From: a virus
Taxonomy: Duplodnaviria > Heunggongvirae > Uroviricota > Caudoviricetes
IMG/VR virus record: IMGVR_UViG_2579779007_000006
Span: 1 to 41,819 of that record
Strand: one strand, 5' to 3'
Length of the DNA stretch: 41,819 nt
In this document: positions 1,538 to 40,451 of the stretch, piece by piece
How the letters are laid out: the number at the start of each line of letters is the position of its first letter
How positions within the stretch are numbered: the first letter of the stretch is position 1
The notes under the pieces: model-generated
What the model was told of the DNA's origin: nothing
The model's input: only the letters and a program-made list of their open reading frames with translations
Database searches by the model: none
Made by a program: the position numbers and the translations under genes

Positions 1538-3427
1538 ATGAAATCCGAGACGCTAACTGTCCAACAACTTTTTCAAGACCGCCGACAATACTGCGTTCCA
1601 TTCTATCAACGTGCCTATGTATGGACTCAGCGAAACCAATGGTCAGCTCTACTGGAGGATATCCTAGAGAAAGCACAATCCCGGCTCTCGGGTACAAAAC
1701 CAACTCCCCATTTCCTTGGTGCAGTGGTACTGGAACCTCAACCAAAAAAAGGATTATTAGGTGTAGATTCCATACATATTATTGATGGTCAGCAACGATT
1801 GACCACTCTTCAATATGTTCTGGCATCCATCCGATTAGCATTACGTGCGACAGATCTTTCCAACTTAGAGCCTCTCATTTCGTCTTGCCTGAAAAACTCA
1901 AACGAAGACACAATGCGAAATAAAGAAGTAGAGCGCTTCAAACTGTGGCCAACTTTTCGGGATCAAACTCATTTTATTCAAAGTTTTAATGTTGAAAATA
2001 TTGACGATATCCGGAATGTATTCTCTGATAGTTTCACGCAGCATGGTACGTTGCGTAAGCATTTTAATCACCCGCCATCACTAGAAGCATTATGTTTTTT
2101 TACTGAAGCCTTTATAAAGTGGATTAAAATAGAAAATCACTCACCACGAGAAAATGCTGTAGCATTAATTGAGGCTGTCTTGACGGATCTGAAACTAGTA
2201 AGCATATTTCTCGAGGCTGAAGATGACGCTCAAATAATTTTTGAAACATTAAATGGCAGAGGTGCGGAACTTCATGCCACAGATCTTATTCGCAATTATA
2301 TTTTTATGTGCGCTGAACATGAAAATATTAATGCTGTTGAATTATATGAGAATGAGTGGAAGATCTTTGAAGATACGTACTGGTCAGAAAGACAACGTCG
2401 TGGTCGTATTAATAAACCACGCATGGAGTGGCTAGTGCATGCGACATTGCAATCAGAAAGGCAACGTGAAATCGATCTGTCTCGTCTTTACAATGAGTAT
2501 CGTGATTATGTAAGTAAGGACTTGCCTTCACAACGAGCAGATCTGCAAGTAAAGCGCCTCAAACAATATGCATCACAATATAAAGAATTGGTTGGTGGTT
2601 TTGGCACAACCCCCATCTCACACTTTGGACATCGCATCGCAGCCTATGATGTGACGACACTTTATCCGCTTGCTTTGTTCATTTCGATAGCTAACATCGC
2701 CGATGATGAGAAAGCAGCCATGTATAATGATCTTGTCTCCTACGTAGTACGAAGAGCCGTATGTGGCCTGACGCCAAAGAATTACAACAATGTATTTATG
2801 AATGTATTGCGGCACTTGTCTAAAACGGAAATTTCCAGTGTTGAGTTACGTAATATCCTCAATAGCTTAAATGGCGAAGCCTCACGTTGGCCTGGGGACT
2901 CAGAATTTCTCAACGCTTGCATCAATGCTCCACTTTATCCTGGCAGGCTCGACGCACCGAAAATGCGCTCAATGTTAACGGAACTTGAAAGAGAACTTTG
3001 TCGCCAAGTGAAGACAGAGAAGCCTGATGTTCCAAATCTTTCTAACCTCGATATCGATCATCTTATGCCTCAAAGTTGGTATTCCTGTTGGCCTCTCGAA
3101 AATGGTCATATGGTGACAAATTCAGATGCTACGGTATTGAACCAAATTGTTCTGTCTGGAACCGATCTTACCCCTGAACAGCTACTGGTAAGGAAACGGC
3201 AACAAGCGATAGCTACGTTGGGAAATCTAACTTTGCTTAACCTTAGCGTAAACCGTTCTGTTCAGAATGCTGTATTTCTGAAAAAACGTGATGCTCTCAT
3301 CGTCCACACCAATCTACGACTGAACATTCCACTTATAGTTAAGGATAAATGGGATGAGGATGAAATCCTGGAGCGGGGTAAAAAGTTGGGGGAAATTGCA
3401 TTGAAAGTATGGCCAAAACACGATTAA
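1538..3427 (+). CDS. GmrSD-like type IV restriction endonuclease candidate (DUF262 N-terminal, DUF1524/HNH-like C-terminal)
   Basis: N-terminal FYQRAYVW and IIDGQQRLTT motifs are typical of DUF262; C-terminal DIDHLMPQSW is a His-Me finger-like motif. Start chosen at MKSETLTVQQLF; the longest ORF begins at 1478. Confidence 0.7.
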   Translation: MKSETLTVQQLFQDRRQYCVPFYQRAYVWTQRNQWSALLEDILEKAQSRLSGTKPTPHFLGAVVLEPQPKKGLLGVDSIHIIDGQQRLTTLQYVLASIRLALRATDLSNLEPLISSCLKNSNEDTMRNKEVERFKLWPTFRDQTHFIQSFNVENIDDIRNVFSDSFTQHGTLRKHFNHPPSLEALCFFTEAFIKWIKIENHSPRENAVALIEAVLTDLKLVSIFLEAEDDAQIIFETLNGRGAELHATDLIRNYIFMCAEHENINAVELYENEWKIFEDTYWSERQRRGRINKPRMEWLVHATLQSERQREIDLSRLYNEYRDYVSKDLPSQRADLQVKRLKQYASQYKELVGGFGTTPISHFGHRIAAYDVTTLYPLALFISIANIADDEKAAMYNDLVSYVVRRAVCGLTPKNYNNVFMNVLRHLSKTEISSVELRNILNSLNGEASRWPGDSEFLNACINAPLYPGRLDAPKMRSMLTELERELCRQVKTEKPDVPNLSNLDIDHLMPQSWYSCWPLENGHMVTNSDATVLNQIVLSGTDLTPEQLLVRKRQQAIATLGNLTLLNLSVNRSVQNAVFLKKRDALIVHTNLRLNIPLIVKDKWDEDEILERGKKLGEIALKVWPKHD

Positions 3428-24736: not shown

Positions 24737-25063
24737 TTACTCCTTAGAGCCACCAAATTTGTTACCGATTACTCGCATTGCAGCCCCACGAATAGCATCG
24801 ACACCGATCAGCCCCACCCCACCACCAATGGCAACAGATAGTGATTTAGGCCATCCGACATACTCAAGAGCGGATGCAAAAGTCAGCGTCAGAGCACCAC
24901 AGAGTAGAATTTCGAGTGTTTTTCGCTTCCAGCCGCCACCACCGCCAAAATAGGCAATACGTAAACCAGCCATAACAATCGACATAATCACTGCGCCCAG
25001 CGGTGTGTCTCCACGCCACCAGCTCTGGACCAACTCCAGCCAGGTATTTGGGTTATGAGGCAT
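24737..25063 (-). CDS. holin
   Basis: 108 aa with hydrophobic helices and a charged C-terminus, immediately upstream of the endolysin. Confidence 0.8.
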   Translation of the reverse strand: MPHNPNTWLELVQSWWRGDTPLGAVIMSIVMAGLRIAYFGGGGGWKRKTLEILLCGALTLTFASALEYVGWPKSLSVAIGGGVGLIGVDAIRGAAMRVIGNKFGGSKE

Positions 25064-33106: not shown

Positions 33107-33355
33107 TTACTTTTCATCTGATGAATCTTTAATCTTTTGAAAAATATCTGGACGTAATTTTTCTTTTGATATGCCAGTGGTCTTTTCAATGAATATCGAG
33201 AGCTTTGCAGGGGGACGCTTTTCTCTGTTCAACCAGTTCCAGACATGTTGTTGCTTTACTAAATGACCGCTGCTGGCTGTGAGCTTCCGAGCCAATTCTG
33301 ATTGACCACCAGCCAGAGCGATTGCCTCCGATAAGGCTAATTGCTCAGGTGTCAT
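33107..33355 (-). CDS. Cro/YdaS-like HTH regulator
   Basis: 82 aa with an HTH (GGQSELARKLTASSGHLVKQ), divergent from the CI gene across an operator region. Confidence 0.75.
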   Translation of the reverse strand: MTPEQLALSEAIALAGGQSELARKLTASSGHLVKQQHVWNWLNREKRPPAKLSIFIEKTTGISKEKLRPDIFQKIKDSSDEK

Positions 33356-33490: not shown

Positions 33491-34177
33491 GTGAAAACAC
33501 TGGCAGAACGATTAAAGATAGGTAGAGAGAAAGCTGGCATGAGCCAAGCTCAACTAGCTGAAAAAATTGGACTTTCACAACAATCTGTAGCCAAAATAGA
33601 GAATGGCGAAACTCTACAACCGCGCAAAATTAAAGAAATTGCAAAAGTTTTAGGTGTATCACAAAAGTGGTTACAACTTGGTATTGAAGACAACGCATCC
33701 ATACCTGATCTTGTTGTAAAAGAAGCAGAAAGCACCGCATTAGACCCCGATATTTTCGTAAACATTCCTGTTTTAGATGTCGAGTTATCGGCAGGTAACG
33801 GATGTCTGGCTGAAATAGTTGAATCAGCTATTGACTGGTTTCCGTTAAGAAGAGCAGATTTGAGAAAATCTGGCGTATGTGCATCTAATGCCAAGATCGT
33901 AAAAATATGGGGGAACAGTTTATTACCGGTTCTCAATAATGGAGATCTTGTTGCCGTTGATATTTCTCAAACCGTTCCTATTCGTGATGGCGATCTTTAT
34001 GCCGTACGAGATGGTGTATTGCTAAGGGTTAAAATACTTATCAACTTACCTGACGGTGGCTTGATTCTTAGAAGCTTCAACAAAGATGAGTACCCAGATG
34101 AAATACTCACCTTTGAAGATAGACGAGCCAGAATTCATGTTATAGGTAGGGTATTCTGGTCATCGCGAACTTGGTAA
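33491..34177 (+). CDS. CI-like prophage repressor (HTH plus S24 peptidase domain)
   Basis: N-terminal HTH (MSQAQLAEKIGLSQQSVAKIENGE) and a C-terminal LexA/S24-like domain (SLLPVLNNGDLVAVD...RVFWSSR). Confidence 0.85.
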   Translation: MKTLAERLKIGREKAGMSQAQLAEKIGLSQQSVAKIENGETLQPRKIKEIAKVLGVSQKWLQLGIEDNASIPDLVVKEAESTALDPDIFVNIPVLDVELSAGNGCLAEIVESAIDWFPLRRADLRKSGVCASNAKIVKIWGNSLLPVLNNGDLVAVDISQTVPIRDGDLYAVRDGVLLRVKILINLPDGGLILRSFNKDEYPDEILTFEDRRARIHVIGRVFWSSRTW

Positions 34178-35050
34178 TGCATCGAAAAGCATTTCTTCAG
34201 AAATAATTTTAAGTTTTGCACCATTATCATCCCTATAAGATATAGCCTTTTCGATCTTCCTTCCGTGACTTGAGAATTTCCAATCACGGGAGGAAAGCGT
34301 CCCAATTACTAAAAAATCCAACTTTTGAGTAATTCCACTACTGATGTTCCCACCAGCATTTTTAATCAAATTTTCAACTACGGCTCTCTTTCCTGCAACA
34401 AAAGTGCCTGTAAGACAATAGGTTTTACCCTCTAACTCTATCGAAGCCCCTACATCAATAGGCAGCCTGGTCGCCAAACCATCCACCACCCCACTTTCCA
34501 AGTCACATCCTGTGAAGTCTACTAATGCCTTATGTAGAGTTAAACTCTCATCTTCAGTAATAACACCATCTTTAAGAATTTCCTTTACAAGTGCATAAAG
34601 TTTTTTTCCTGGGTAGTTGTTCTTCAAAGCTCCATTTTGCTCAAGCCACCAATTAAGATATCTTATTTCTTCTTGAGTTAAGTTCCGATCAGCAATTAAT
34701 CCTTTACATAGTCCATTAAGTAAATGGACATCTACATCCTTGGAGTAAAAATCAATTTCAGGGATATCAAGAATTTCCCTCTGTATTTGGAGAAGGCTAT
34801 TTTTAAGGTCATCACGTTCTTCTGATGTGATTATTCCATCCGCAAGAATATCCGACACCCGTGCTGATAGACTTTTTATAACTCCATTATTGATAATCTG
34901 CTTTGCTTCAAGTAACCATGTATCTAAGTAAAGAACCTCCTCTTCACGGACAACTCCATCTGCAATGATTCCATCAATGATGCTAATCAAGTTAGCAAAT
35001 AACTTGTCCCGGTTCTGTGTGTAATTAAAAGCGTAAAGCGCGTCTTCCAT
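34160..35050 (-). CDS. hypothetical protein: four TerB-like DGxxxxEE helical repeats plus C-terminal BRCT-like domain
   Basis: Start placed at MEDALYAF (AGGAGG ribosome-binding site 5 nt upstream). Four roughly 45-aa repeats begin DG[VI][VI]xxEE; the C-terminus (GKTYCLTGTF...AGGNISSGITQKLDFLVIG...GAKLKIISEEMLFDAL) is BRCT-like. Confidence 0.65.
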   Translation of the reverse strand: MEDALYAFNYTQNRDKLFANLISIIDGIIADGVVREEEVLYLDTWLLEAKQIINNGVIKSLSARVSDILADGIITSEERDDLKNSLLQIQREILDIPEIDFYSKDVDVHLLNGLCKGLIADRNLTQEEIRYLNWWLEQNGALKNNYPGKKLYALVKEILKDGVITEDESLTLHKALVDFTGCDLESGVVDGLATRLPIDVGASIELEGKTYCLTGTFVAGKRAVVENLIKNAGGNISSGITQKLDFLVIGTLSSRDWKFSSHGRKIEKAISYRDDNGAKLKIISEEMLFDALPSSR

Positions 35051-35094
35051 ACAACCTCCTTTTTTTGATAATCCTTGCACTCCTTGGCTACTCG

Positions 35095-35160
35095 TTCAAA
35101 CCACATAAAGTTGTTGACAACATTCAAAACCACAACTAAATTACAACTTAAAGGTGTTAA
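35095..35160 (+). promoter_or_regulatory. OL/PL-like operator-promoter
   Basis: TTGACA (35114..35119), 17-bp spacer, TAAATT (35137..35142), embedded in the same AAGTTGT/ACAACTT repeats seen at OR. Confidence 0.55.
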
Positions 35161-35315
35161 AACAATGAGCAGGCAGGACGCCCACGAAGTAGCCGCCTGG
35201 GGCATATGAAGTCCAGGATGATTCGTTAGCAACAAAAAAGCGCCCTACAGGACGCTTAGCTCTTTAACAATCTGGTCCCCATCAACAAGTAACTGATAAC
35301 TTGAGGAGGTGTGAA

Positions 35316-35522
35316 ATGCACAAAACAGAACCAAAAATCGTCGCGCCCGGATACACAAATGAGGAAATTTACGAGTGGATGGCAAAGAAGCTGGCAGCTA
35401 TAAACCAGCTTCGTGAAGTGCTGTCTTATCGACAGGAAACAATAGACTCCTTAAAAAAACTGGATCAGGAAATCACGGTTTTATCACAGGATGTTACTTT
35501 AGATATTGTGCAGACAAATTAG
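35316..35522 (+). CDS. small hypothetical protein, first gene of the early-left operon
   Basis: 69 aa; GGAGG ribosome-binding site 7 nt upstream of ATG; predicted helical/coiled-coil. Confidence 0.55.
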   Translation: MHKTEPKIVAPGYTNEEIYEWMAKKLAAINQLREVLSYRQETIDSLKKLDQEITVLSQDVTLDIVQTN

Positions 35523-35928
35523 GATCCCATTCATTTTCGTCAAAATCATCAAAGTGATGAATTTGTGATCTCCAGTCTCGATAATCTAAAAATTTCTGGG
35601 CGGTTACGCTTATTTTATCAAGCGTGAGTTCATCCTGAATTGAAAGAAGAAGTTCATCAAATTTCATCTCATTAATCTGTTTTGGCATCCAGTGATGCTT
35701 CATCAGAATAAGGTGAACCAGAGCTTTTTTCCCATTCAACTGATTATAGGGAGTGCCGAATTTCTTCCGGTGCTCATGTAAGACAAGGTCCAGAAGAGTA
35801 AGTAATGTTGCCCTTGATTCAACTTTGCTTATTTCGACTGATGACACTACCCCACTGATTTCAATGCCCCGATACTTTCCAACATTTTCACAGTGGGATT
35901 TGTACAGCGTATAGATATTACCGGACAT
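35494..35928 (-). CDS. hypothetical protein
   Basis: 144-aa AT-rich ORF on the strand opposite the early-left operon, converging on the small plus-strand gene; no family recognised. Confidence 0.5.
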   Translation of the reverse strand: MSGNIYTLYKSHCENVGKYRGIEISGVVSSVEISKVESRATLLTLLDLVLHEHRKKFGTPYNQLNGKKALVHLILMKHHWMPKQINEMKFDELLLSIQDELTLDKISVTAQKFLDYRDWRSQIHHFDDFDENEWDPNLSAQYLK

Positions 35929-36214
35929 TTCTTTTCCTTTTGCGTTGTTGGGGATAACCAGATTAACCGAATCCTTGTTGTTGGGGAATAACCAGGTCCA
36001 CCTCGCCTGATGTGGCTAAAAGCAGGCACATAACAGCTAAGTATTTTCAACCAGAGAGAATCCTTAGCGTTGTGGTGAATGCGGCTCAGCGCACGCGGGT
36101 TAAGGTTGAGGCTGACAGTCGACCTTCTGTGGATACCCACCCGTCTGGTGTGCAACCTTCGCCAGGCACCGGGAGGCACCCGGCACCACAACTTTATGCT
36201 GTGTGTAGTCCCGG

Positions 36215-36259
36215 CGGTACCAGTTTGTACCCTTGCTTCCGGCTGGTACCGTCCTTTTT
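36215..36259 (+). terminator. terminator-like hairpin
   Basis: cggtaccag / ctggtaccg 9-bp stem with a 19-nt loop followed by TTTTT. Confidence 0.4.
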
Positions 36260-36348
36260 ACAAAACAGAGAAGAGCATCACCGGACGACGGGCTCATAAC
36301 CCAATCCATCCGGGCGGCTGCCACCGCAGGTGTTCTTCTCTGTTTTGT
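36260..36348. repeat. perfect 15-bp inverted repeat flanking a 59-bp GC-rich spacer
   Basis: acaaaacagagaaga (36260..36274) and tcttctctgttttgt (36334..36348) are exact reverse complements. Confidence 0.6.
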
Positions 36349-36396
36349 GGAGAAACTAATCGGCCTTGCAGGGTCGATATGATGAGGAGCAGCAAA

Positions 36397-36759
36397 ATGG
36401 CTAGCGAACGCAGTACTGATGTGCAGGCATTTATCGGGGAGCTGGACGGCGGCGTATTTGAAACCAAAATCGGCGCAGTTCTCAGTGAAGTCGCTTCCGG
36501 TGTGATGAACACGAAAACCAAAGGTAAGGTCTCACTCAACCTGGAAATCGAACCATTTGATGAGAACCGTGTGAAAATCAAACACAAACTCTCATATGTT
36601 CGCCCGACTAACCGCGGGAAAATTTCCGAAGAAGACACCACCGAAACGCCGATGTATGTCAATCGCGGTGGTCGCCTGACTATTCTGCAGGAAGACCAGG
36701 GACAGTTACTGACTCTTGCCGGTGAACCTGACGGAAAACTCCGCGCAGCAGGTCGTTAA
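36397..36759 (+). CDS. YfdP-like prophage protein
   Basis: Start at MASERSTDV with a GAGGAG ribosome-binding site; the longer upstream extension looks non-coding. Confidence 0.65.
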   Translation: MASERSTDVQAFIGELDGGVFETKIGAVLSEVASGVMNTKTKGKVSLNLEIEPFDENRVKIKHKLSYVRPTNRGKISEEDTTETPMYVNRGGRLTILQEDQGQLLTLAGEPDGKLRAAGR

Positions 36760-38971: not shown

Positions 38972-39321
38972 TGGAGCCATACAGCCTCACACTCGATGAG
39001 GCCTGTCATTTTCTCAAGATATCCAGACCGACTGCCATTAACTGGATACGCACAGGGCGTCTTCAGGCAACACGCAAAGATCCCACTAAGAATAAATCTC
39101 CTTACCTCACAACACGACAAGCCTGCATTGCGGCTCTTCAGTCTCCGCTGCATACTGTCCAGGTGAGCGCGGGTGATGGCATAACAGAGGAAAGAAAATG
39201 TCACTCTTCCGCAGAGGTGAAATATGGTACGCCAGTTTCACATTGCCGAACGGTAAAAGATTTAAACAGTCTCTTGGAACAAAGGACAAAAGGCAGGCGA
39301 CAGAACTCCATGACAAGCTAA
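38971..39321 (+). CDS. xis: excisionase
   Basis: 116 aa ([36 protein letters not shown]) closely matching P22 Xis as recalled; 3' end overlaps int. Confidence 0.85.
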
Positions 39322-40361
39322 AGGCTGAAGCATGGCGGGTCAGCAAACTTGGTGAAATACCTGATATAACGTTCGAGGAAGCGTGTGTCAGGTGGCTTGA
39401 AGAGAAAGCACATAAAAAATCACTGGACGATGACAAAAGCCGGATCGGATTCTGGCTTCAACATTTCGCAGGAATGCAACTAAGAGACATTACTGAATCA
39501 AAAATTTATTCAGCAATGCAGAAAATGACGAACCGGCGTCATGAGGAAAACTGGAAACTCAGGGCAGAAGCATGCAGAAAAAAAGGGAAACCTGTTCCAG
39601 AATACACGCCAAAACCAGCGTCCGTTGCAACGAAGGCTACGCATCTTTCATTTATAAAGGCCCTACTAAGAGCCGCAGAGCGTGAATGGAAAATGCTGGA
39701 TAAGGCACCAATTATTAAAGTGCCTCAACCAAAGAATAAACGGATCCGCTGGCTGGAGCCCCATGAAGCACAAAGGCTGATTGATGAATGTCCGGAGCCA
39801 TTAAAGTCTGTTGTTGAATTTGCACTGGCAACAGGCTTAAGACGCTCGAACATCATCAACCTTGAATGGCAACAAATAGATATGCAGCGCCGGGTGGCAT
39901 GGATAAACCCGGAAGAGAGTAAATCAAACCGCGCAATTGGCGTTGCGCTGAATGATACTGCATGTCGCGTATTGAAAAAACAAATCGGGAATCATCACCG
40001 TTGGGTATTTGTGTACAAGGAAAGCTGTACCAAACCAGACGGAACGAAAGCGCCAACAGTAAGGAAGATGCGGTATGACGCAAACACAGCCTGGAAAGCG
40101 GCGCTGAGACGGGCTGGTATTGATGATTTCAGATTTCACGACTTGAGACACACCTGGGCAAGTTGGCTGGTTCAAGCCGGAGTCCCGTTGTCAGTTTTAC
40201 AGGAAATGGGAGGCTGGGAGTCTATCGAAATGGTTCGTCGATATGCTCACCTTGCACCTAATCACCTTACCGAACACGCACGGCAAATAGACTCGATCCT
40301 GAACCCATCGGTCCCAAATTTGTCCCAGTCAAAAAATAAGGAAGGTACTAATGATGTGTAA
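39198..40361 (+). CDS. int: tyrosine integrase, P22 Int-like
   Basis: 387 aa beginning [47 protein letters not shown] with the catalytic R...HDLRHTWAS...Y region, ending 14 nt from the tRNA 3' end. Confidence 0.95.
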
Positions 40362-40375
40362 CTTATTGATTTTAA

Positions 40376-40451
40376 TGGTGCCGATAATAGGAGTCGAACC
40401 TACGACCTTCGCATTACGAATGCGCTGCTCTACCAACTGAGCTATATCGGC
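40376..40451 (-). tRNA. thrW: tRNA-Thr (anticodon CGU)
   Basis: The reverse complement reads GCCGATATAGCTCAGTTGGTAGAGCAGCGCATTCGTAATGCG...GGTTCGACTCCTATTATCGGCACCA, a canonical cloverleaf with a CGT anticodon. Confidence 0.95.

Follow-up and report, generated by a model that had tools for sequence, protein, structure and literature searches.

A conserved three-way-junction RNA with an initiator-tRNA-like core in the early-left leader of an SfV/SfIV-like prophage

We analyzed a stretch of 41,819 nucleotides of viral DNA (Caudoviricetes; IMG/VR record IMGVR_UViG_2579779007_000006), referred to as the window, and within it the region 35929-36396 in front of the gene yfdP, for which an initial annotation made from the letters alone had described a GC-rich non-coding stretch with a terminator-like hairpin and a perfect inverted repeat. 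The inverted repeat is, on the evidence presented here, the basal stalk of a conserved folded RNA, which we call module B (36260-36348, plus strand) and whose core resembles the anticodon arm of the initiator tRNA. Our best guess is that B represents a processed, tRNA-derived small RNA module. What the initial annotation had observed was confirmed, and its interpretation was supported in part.

The window is, as we read its genes, an SfV/SfIV-like prophage integrated beside tRNA-Thr (40376-40451), which ARAGORN and the Rfam tRNA model find as the sole tRNA of the window. The region under study is preceded by a cro-like gene (33107-33355, minus strand), cI (33491-34177, plus strand), a gene with a BRCT domain (34160-35080, minus strand), a small open reading frame (ORF; 35316-35522, plus strand) and a gene of the ECs1072 family (35494-35928, minus strand; from the ORF map and the RefSeq annotation). 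It is followed on the plus strand by the early-left operon with yfdP (36397-36759), yfdQ and yfdR up to xis and int (39198-40361). The start codon of yfdP (ATG, 36397-36399) is the RefSeq start annotated in an identical prophage. The region itself comprises upstream DNA of the divergent ECs1072-family gene and a structured leader, in which a cassette similar to the small RNAs STnc100 and PasD (module A), a terminator-like hairpin (module T) and module B follow each other.

The two 15-mers ACAAAACAGAGAAGA (36260-36274) and TCTTCTCTGTTTTGT (36334-36348) are, as initially annotated, exact reverse complements with a spacer of 59 nt. By our own arithmetic approximately 0.004 perfect 15-mers with a spacer of at most 100 nt would be expected by chance in 41.8 kb, and within a range of 150 nt no other inverted repeat of the window reaches an exact seed of 13 nt. 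According to a repeat finder the arms reach 25 nt, with 84% complementarity. The 101-nt segment folds with −51 kcal/mol (z = −7.8), and none of 200 shuffled sequences folds equally well. The GC content amounts to 0.54-0.56 over 36000-36400 compared to 0.34-0.47 on both sides, which bears out the description of the region as GC-rich.

The view that the region holds no convincing ORF stood up as well. Upstream of yfdP its frame stays open over 318 nt and would give YfdP an N-terminal extension in a product of 226 amino acids (ORF 36079-36759). RefSeq, through its annotation pipeline PGAP, places a pseudogene termed "frameshifted hypothetical protein" at 36072-36382 of the window, and in phage SfIV the structured RNA (L002, 2919-3831; L numbers denote our loci) is annotated as the ORFs SfIV_34 and SfIV_35. 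These annotations together with the open frame are the argument for a protein. None of the mechanically called ORFs crossing the region has a Pfam match, and homologues differ within the supposed extension by indels of 1, 2, 4, 19, 21 and 25 nt, among them lengths that are not multiples of three and break the frame. Substitutions track base pairing and not codon position, the composition agrees with a GC-rich structured RNA, and RefSeq itself starts yfdP at 36397. We regard it as hardly credible that the region encodes a protein; the PGAP pseudogene as well as SfIV_34 and SfIV_35 look like annotation artefacts.

Read as RNA, module B forms a three-way junction. Its stalk, helix P1, consists of 20 bp (36260-36279 with 36329-36348) and contains both 15-mers; two of its pairs are wobble pairs (one G·U, one U·G), one conserved mismatch lies within it, and the fold adds approximately five weak pairs. 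Helix P2 pairs 36281-36285 with 36309-36313, and helix P3 is a variable hairpin (36314-36317 with 36324-36327). Covariation was assessed in alignments of 13 and 18 non-redundant homologues, the comparison among related prophages that the initial annotation had suggested. With 18 sequences, 95.5% of the cells are paired compared to 34-52% if the partners are shifted by one to three columns, nine pairs are changed on both sides, and the observed values were attained in none of 500 shuffles. All three helices P1, P2 and P3 are backed by covariation, so that the long and near-perfect RNA stem proposed initially is indeed kept by compensatory changes.

The alignment also contains conserved U·G and G·U pairs (columns 21-98 and 5-114), which on the opposite strand would turn into A·C mismatches. 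A covariance model built for the element, R1, scores 110.5 bits on the plus strand and 39.2 bits on the minus strand. Because of these two observations we read B on the plus strand; the fold is likewise more significant there (z = −6.1 vs. −3.4). This strand bias supports an action of B at the RNA level. It also bears on the idea that the inverted repeat works as DNA, be it as a palindrome bound by a protein, as a cruciform or recombination site, or as the termini of a miniature inverted-repeat transposable element (MITE); the palindrome and the MITE had been considered in the initial annotation. The perfection of the 15-bp repeat would suit such a role, and a conserved sequence beside a hypervariable cassette could mark recombination joints between phage modules. 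The conserved wobble pairs would however be mismatches in a cruciform, and it is the asymmetric "spacer", in RNA terms the branched core, that is the most conserved part, more so than the stalk arms. Klebsiella phages retain the core on arms of just 6 bp, and the strand asymmetry and variable insertions in the spacer speak against a palindrome bound by protein. As to a MITE, B occurs in a single copy in the 41.8-kb window and once per phage genome, in sense orientation in the leaders of phage operons and in the same transcriptional context each time, with arms less conserved than the interior; target-site duplications were not noticed, without a systematic search for them. The MITE is therefore not supported, and we consider a function at the DNA level very improbable.

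A fold and an Rfam scan had also been proposed, of which the fold proved significant; the scan gave no family for B, neither at curated nor at permissive thresholds, and no known riboswitch or ribozyme, and it touched STnc100 only below threshold for module A. At curated thresholds tRNA-Thr is the only match over the window, and permissive matches to mir-9412, ftsZ-DE and the hairpin ribozyme were discarded as noise. In the literature on yfdP, ST64B small RNAs, tRNA-like decoys, and VapC and phage we found no description of the element. Being absent from Rfam and the searchable literature, the B family is apparently undescribed.

The tip of helix P2 is formed by a core 21-mer, GACGGGCUCAUAACCCAAUCC (36287-36307, plus strand), which occurs once in the window. 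It consists of a GGG/CCC stem (36290-36292 with 36300-36302) and the 7-nt loop CUCAUAA (36293-36299). Within it CGGGCUCAUAACCC is identical at 14 of 14 positions to the anticodon arm of E. coli metY, an initiator tRNA. The other tRNAs tested share the loop at most; for the isoleucine tRNAs with CAU anticodon of phages 933W and P1 the match is confined to the 7-nt loop. The core thus corresponds to the anticodon arm of a specific tRNA. A complete tRNA is not predicted at B: neither ARAGORN nor the Rfam tRNA model gives a cloverleaf, and there is no tRNA match in 35700-36600 at E ≤ 10. An acceptor-like stem followed by NCCA is found in the Klebsiella-type relatives; in the window, GGAGAAAC comes after the stalk instead. 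With the E. coli metY-rimP leader the region has nothing in common beyond the 14-mer.

Most homologues were retrieved by the pattern ACGGGCTCATWAYCCAATCC; of the 20 core positions that this pattern covers, 18 are fixed. The covariance model R1 recovers cores that this pattern misses, in phage P1 (ACGGGUUCAUAUCCCAAUC) and elsewhere, and in the example from Acidobacteria the flanking G and the context agree with the core. The copies from phage P1, Klebsiella, Raoultella and Acidobacteria that were found or confirmed by R1 are, to our assessment, the more independent evidence of conservation. As a separate observation, codons 2-5 of the holin mRNA (AUG CCU CAU AAC CCA AAU; window 25045-25063, minus strand, gene 24737-25063) contain the core 12-mer CUCAUAACCCAA in the same sense. 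Chance would give about 0.005-0.05 such matches; this one is probably a coincidence. We had considered the core loop as an antisense seed acting on a phage gene; the best match is this one at 25045-25063, which is same-sense and not complementary to the holin mRNA.

The element is widespread. The 468-nt region is matched in 2781 of 5426 complete E. coli genomes, and an exact-pattern search of viral contigs places the core at no fewer than 120 loci. A scan of genome contigs with 16 specified bases, for which approximately 280 chance matches are expected in 596 Gb, contained approximately 17 real cases among the 120 matches listed, most of which are due to chance (about 16 enterobacterial ones, including one labelled Chryseobacterium, and one from Acidobacteria). 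B, its core or relatives of it occur in Shigella serotype-converting phages, Salmonella ST64B, Stx2c phages, P1, Klebsiella phages and an Acidobacteria phage. The first gene after B is variable and can be yfdP, an rdgC-like gene, yfdR or a holin gene. That B stands ahead of whichever gene is the first points to a role at the level of the operon or in trans. At one locus (L032) B begins approximately 110 nt past a promoter-like site, at the very start of the early-left transcript. At two others (L091, L177) it lies, in our reading, close behind the terminator of the repressor gene and operator-like repeats; the scan gave no promoter-like site in L091.

More distant relatives differ in their surroundings. 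In Klebsiella phages the core sits on a 6-bp stem, 6-7 nt past the CCA of tRNA-Arg or tRNA-Asn and downstream of Q, and the stem is followed by RCCA; a terminator separates this copy from the holin gene. In phage P1 (L005, NC_005856) R1 finds two units past tRNA-Asn and tRNA-Thr in the ban operon. There, 1930-2640 (plus strand) contains three tandem units of a long stalk with cargo, each followed by an STnc100-like cassette of the form GUUGYGRUGAAU...CACAAC, and the cargo of one unit holds the T-arm-like GGGUUCGAAUCCC. Stalks with similar strand sequences enclose other cargos in tandem, which speaks for the stalk as a processing site. The units overlap the ORFs plp and upl annotated on the minus strand of P1, and the reality of both may need to be rechecked. 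A metagenome-assembled genome of Acidobacteriaceae (L217, 2543-2630) and two IMG/VR sequences (L250, L260) carry the identical 21-mer GACGGGCUCAUAACCCAAUCC on top of an intergenic hairpin of 8 bp plus 10 bp. This Acidobacteria-type copy lies in a phage-like region beside genes for a Dam-type methylase and a glucosaminidase and scores 37.7 bits with R1. In the CPS-53 prophage of E. coli K-12 (L126, 7240-7600) modules A, T and B are deleted, and iteron-like repeats, GATTTTGACGGGTCAGA and variants, are found upstream of yfdP instead. Because K-12 lost the three modules, K-12 transcript and RNase III datasets are uninformative on the element.

The hairpin directly before the repeat, module T (36213-36259, plus strand), is supported by its fold and by covariation across phages. 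A 13-bp stem (36213-36225 with 36241-36253) encloses a pyrimidine-rich loop of 15 nt and leads over CC into UUUUU (36255-36259), so that the module ends in CCUUUUU; it folds with −23.1 kcal/mol (z = −4.6). A simple terminator scan omits it because the loop of 15 nt exceeds the scan maximum of 8. Among 18 diverse phages the stems vary (UACCAG/CUGGUA, CAUC/GAUG, CGUC/GACG, UUAUCCA/UGGAUAA) and the pairing is kept, as are the base of the stem (GGCGG/CCGCC) and the U-run, which counts 5-7 residues. In the alignment to the Rfam STnc100 model, T furthermore coincides with the terminator of that model. With a GC-rich stem-loop, a directly adjoining U-tract and a conserved position it has the features of an intrinsic terminator and would be expected to behave like one, in agreement with its initial designation as terminator-like. 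T is connected to module A by a conserved single-stranded linker, UUUAUGCUGUGUGUAGUCCC (36193-36212, plus strand), of which UGCUGUGUGUAGUCUU recurs upstream of T in phages with differing cassette types. Two further pairings were tried and rejected: that of the U-tract of T with GGAGAAA is weak and lost in GUAUGGAG variants, and covariation is absent for that of the linker with the stalk's 5' strand.

Module A (36069-36192, plus strand) rests on Rfam and on compensatory variants. It is closed by a helix of GUUGUGGUG (36069-36077) with CACCACAAC (36184-36192) and contains the 3' hairpin CCGGG-AGGCA-CCCGG (36169-36183). In a permissive Rfam scan 36039-36262 matches positions 1-206 of the STnc100 model (RF02076) with 41.6 bits (E = 1.8e-7); the bona fide STnc100 of phage 933W, used as positive control, scores 207.7 bits. 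With the 933W STnc100 module A shares the 22-nt CACCGGGAGGCACCCGGCACCA and GGUGAAU in identical form, and closing helix, GGUGAAU and 3' hairpin (CACCGGGAGGCACCCGGCACC) together make up the STnc100 core. The closing helix is compensated in phage P1 (GUUGCGGUG/CACCGCAAC vs. GUUGUGGUG/CACCACAAC in the window), and the 3' hairpin in two other loci (GGUGG-AGGCA-CCACC in L089 and L122). These changes were read directly off the sequences; as the MAFFT alignment shifted the 3' hairpin by one column, formal pair counts are not given for module A.

STnc100 overlaps EcOnc27/sRNA103, an Hfq-bound small RNA seen experimentally (PMC12711010), and PasD is an abundant Hfq-bound small RNA and a structural relative of STnc100 (bioRxiv 10.64898/2026.05.13.724894). 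Module A has in common with them the multi-branch fold with GGUG...CACC closure, GGUGAAU, the identical CACCGGGAGGCACCCGGCACCA, a 3' terminator ending in CCUUUUUACA and the location on prophages. It differs in its internal hairpins and in its sub-threshold score. It lies moreover in an early-left leader, approximately 0.9 kb from the promoter PL, whereas the known copies are late, downstream of Q, stx or an esterase gene, and expression and Hfq data on STnc100-type RNAs refer to such late-region copies (PMC12711010; bioRxiv 10.64898/2026.05.13.724894). The promoter scan detected no own promoter of module A. Module A is, from these features, a distant relative of STnc100 and PasD and with it a new member of a known superfamily of small RNAs. 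Modules A and B are independent of each other, because 933W has STnc100 without a B element nearby.

A further difference from STnc100 and PasD is that the slot of module A is hypervariable. It is closed by GUUGUGG...CCACAAC, and sister phages (L010, L016, L033, L037, L089, L107 and L101 among the loci) fill it with no fewer than nine unrelated types of cassette, 58-162 nt in length. One type is a tRNA-like insert with D-arm, T-arm and a CAU-loop hairpin, present in two loci (L107, L101), of which L107 reaches 43.9 bits with the Rfam tRNA model. The leaders of two others (L010, L089) also bear T-arm-like hairpins, GGUUCGAUUCC. Just upstream of module A, the minimum-free-energy fold of the window contains a small hairpin AGCUAAG...CUUAGC (36036-36068, plus strand). 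In ST64B, L010, L089 and phage P1 its position is taken by a long stalk with strands of similar sequence, and the small hairpin is probably a shortened version of the long stalk units found ahead of the cassette in these related phages.

On the 3' side, the stalk of B is directly followed by the conserved tail GGAGAAAC (36349-36356, plus strand). GGAGA is present in every E. coli-type homologue, a constancy that is partly selected since the sequences were trimmed at GGAGA. An upstream ORF starting from (A/G)UG before GAGAAA was considered and rejected: an upstream Shine-Dalgarno sequence is lacking and stop positions vary, and a conserved start is unlikely because the AUG or GUG before the tail is not conserved (ACG in L064). 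Hairpin C, AUCGGCCU-UGCA-GGGUCGAU (36359-36378, plus strand), comes next; its fold is not significant alone (z = −0.9), and homologues retain a hairpin at this position with differing stems and a (U/G)GCA(G) loop. The Shine-Dalgarno sequence GAGGAG of yfdP (36384-36389, plus strand) then precedes the start codon at 36397-36399.

On the 5' side, the first approximately 105 nt (35929-36035, GC content 0.42-0.47) lie outside the structured RNA and are upstream DNA of the divergent ECs1072-family gene, so that the initial description of 35929-36396 as one structured region holds from 36036 onward. They contain the direct repeats TTGTTGGGGA(A)TAACCAG at 35945-35959 and 35978-35992, 33 nt apart by these coordinates and 34 nt in the register of the repeat finder, which may serve as a regulatory site for the ECs1072-family gene. 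An Enterobacter prophage (L144) shows an arrangement similar to this repeat pair (window 35941-36002).

The transcript bearing A, T and B likely originates from a candidate PL promoter further upstream and outside the region under study, TTGACA-17-TAAATT (35114-35142, plus strand). It matches 10 of 12 consensus positions and is flanked by AAGTTGT/ACAACTT half-sites that are also present in the cI-cro intergenic region, and its position is the one where ST64B carries its own promoter and operators after cI. A promoter scan of the plus strand gave no promoter-like site nearer to the structured element, and the composite leader would lie approximately 0.9-1.2 kb downstream of this one. Many temperate phages that lack an N gene, among them SfV, SfII, SfIV, ST64B, phiNP, YeP1-3, ZF40, mEp237 and SPN3UB, share a conserved stretch of about 65 nt right after PL (35160-35225, plus strand), CAGGCAGGACGCCCACGAAGUAGCCGCC...CCAGGAUGAUUCG. 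One stem of this post-PL element covaries (CCUGG/CCAGG in the window vs. CCGGU/ACCGG in ST64B); it is single copy, its fold is thermodynamically ordinary, and an obvious similarity to HK022 putL is not seen. We regard it as a candidate for a put- or nut-like element. Also in ST64B, near sb41 (L001, 409-597, minus strand), C4 antisense RNA (79.7 bits) and isrK (64.3 bits) are found, and at Rfam gathering thresholds there is no counterpart of either in the window.

This arrangement raises the question of whether B itself is a processive antitermination element, which by put-like binding of the polymerase or by Nus recruitment as with a nut or rrn boxA would allow read-through to xis and int. B occupies the place of putL and nutL (PMC9378689), at the head of long phage operons or close to it, an N-like gene is not annotated in this phage group, and the unpaired nucleotides are highly conserved, as for an RNA in contact with protein. 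Each phage has however one copy and none in the PR operon, and a search with R1 of the HK022 immunity region, which contains putL, is negative. An identity with HK022 put was rejected, as neither B nor the post-PL element resembles it and a paired copy is missing. B cannot help the polymerase to pass T because it lies downstream of T in the window, the Klebsiella phages already have the antiterminator Q upstream, and the post-PL element would be better placed for the task. In favor of antitermination, the 3' strands of the stalk (36329-36340 and relatives) follow (G/A)UGCUCUU(C/U), UGUUCUUC in the window, and resemble the rrn/nut boxA core, UGCUCUUU; this boxA-like sequence would however be base-paired and buried in the stalk. 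On balance we judge antitermination by B improbable.

We propose instead, with a probability of roughly 45%, that the region is the distal untranslated leader of the early-left operon, in which T attenuates transcription and the stalk of B is processed, freeing a tRNA-like small RNA. A plus-strand transcript would start at the PL-like promoter. T would end an RNA containing module A and attenuate further transcription, and the transcripts reading through T would carry B. The stalk, approximately 20-25 bp with the weak pairs, would be a site of processing in double-stranded RNA, with RNase III as the most likely enzyme. Its 20 bp of mostly Watson-Crick pairs correspond to approximately two helical turns, the length (at least 20 bp) of an RNase III substrate; cleavage is plausible. 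The cut would free the tRNA-like cargo of approximately 50-70 nt as a stable small RNA and at the same time sever the structured leader from the yfdP-int mRNA. The short-stem, RCCA-tailed copies of Klebsiella phages would be released by tRNA-processing enzymes instead. Because such short-stem, CCA-tailed copies sit behind tRNA genes, we prefer the release of a small RNA to a leader structure of purely local effect.

Several points weigh against this proposal. In the literature we found no mapped transcript, 5' or 3' end or cleavage site for the element, and cleavage by RNase III is not predictable from sequence. RNase III processing is not a family-wide feature, because a 20-bp stalk like this one is missing from the Klebsiella- and Acidobacteria-type copies. 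Since T lies upstream of B, an efficient T would restrict B to read-through transcripts. The 41.6 bits of module A remain below the STnc100 gathering score of 47, and at that threshold STnc100 is matched neither in the window nor in 15 related leaders. The invariance of the core in our alignments is partly by construction, because the retrieval pattern fixes it. In the E. coli-type phages, finally, hairpin C, the GGAGAAAC tail and the ribosome-binding site accompany T and B, which fits a leader acting only in cis equally well.

Such a leader, in which B, T, the tail and hairpin C form a purely cis-acting device for the downstream operon and no functional RNA is released, is a somewhat doubtful reading that we nevertheless take seriously. 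It could act as a stabilizing 5' structure or as an RNase III-modulated switch like the leader of lambda N, where an RNase III site between nutL and N modulates translation of N. In the E. coli-type phages the whole unit from T to the ribosome-binding site stands directly upstream of the first ORF, whichever ORF this is, and only some 40-100 nt separate the tail from the start codon. The same core is however found where no ORF is close, as in Klebsiella phages behind tRNAs with a terminator before the holin gene, and it occurs in two tandem copies in phage P1. The minimum-free-energy fold leaves the center of the yfdP Shine-Dalgarno sequence unpaired, with only its edges in pairs. The identity with the initiator-tRNA arm and the conservation of 21 nt across phyla would also be unexplained by a local stability element.

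Beyond the release of a small RNA, its cargo might act in trans as a mimic of the initiator-tRNA anticodon arm on a universally conserved host partner of tRNA-fMet, an extension we hold to be rather unlikely. The mimic could possibly be a decoy or competitive inhibitor of VapC-type toxins, which cleave tRNA-fMet and are known in Shigella, Salmonella, Leptospira and Haemophilus, or a ligand of the 30S P site, of initiation factor IF3 or of methionyl-tRNA synthetase that tunes initiation. If true, this would explain the identical 21-mer in phages of Enterobacterales and of an Acidobacterium as well as the association with tRNA genes. The leaders would then be arrays of tRNA-derived RNAs built of stalk plus cargo, a class of phage small RNAs not yet described, and a functional mimic would provide a testable link of temperate phages to tRNA-targeting defence or to the control of translation initiation.

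Regions with B are currently labelled as hypothetical ORFs or as a pseudogene in the databases. Recognizing the RNA removes such spurious genes (SfIV_34/35, the PGAP pseudogene, possibly plp and upl of P1) and adds a family that Rfam lacks. The STnc100/PasD slot would appear as a hypervariable cassette within a repeated stalk architecture, which bears on the origin and exchange of prophage small RNAs.

A comparison with known systems places the two parts of B differently. The initial annotation had compared the long stem to lambda sib, which lies 3' of int and acts by retroregulation. This comparison does not hold, as the element lies in the 5' leader ahead of the first gene, yfdP, approximately 2.8 kb upstream of int. 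The stalk resembles more closely the RNase III stalks of rRNA operons, the T7 early sites, the lambda N leader and the maturation of DicF from the dicB operon. A stem of at least approximately 20 bp flanking a structured cargo in a long transcript is common to all of them, one conserved internal mismatch is shared with phage RNase III sites, and the location in a 5' leader with lambda N. In contrast to these stalks, short-stem variants of the B cargo exist, and cleavage of B is a prediction. With HK022 put and lambda nut B has in common the position near the start of the early-left transcript in a phage group without N, and a compact RNA of two hairpins with conserved unpaired bases; it differs by lacking a copy in the PR operon and any similarity to putL in sequence or by model, and by lying downstream of a terminator. 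The cargo, an anticodon-arm look-alike in an RNA that is not a tRNA, recalls the thrS operator with its tRNA-Thr anticodon arm, the stable RNA species 1 and 2 from the tRNA cluster of phage T4, mascRNA and the tRNA-like domain of tmRNA, although B has no cloverleaf and its conserved flanks, GAC and AAUCC, are not tRNA-like. To our knowledge no mimic of the initiator tRNA has been described in a phage. B-type copies beside phage tRNA genes in Klebsiella phages and P1 are probably co-processed with them, and the RCCA after the Klebsiella stem is a further likeness to RNAs of tRNA clusters. By these analogies the cargo would belong with the tRNA mimics and the stable RNAs of phage tRNA clusters.

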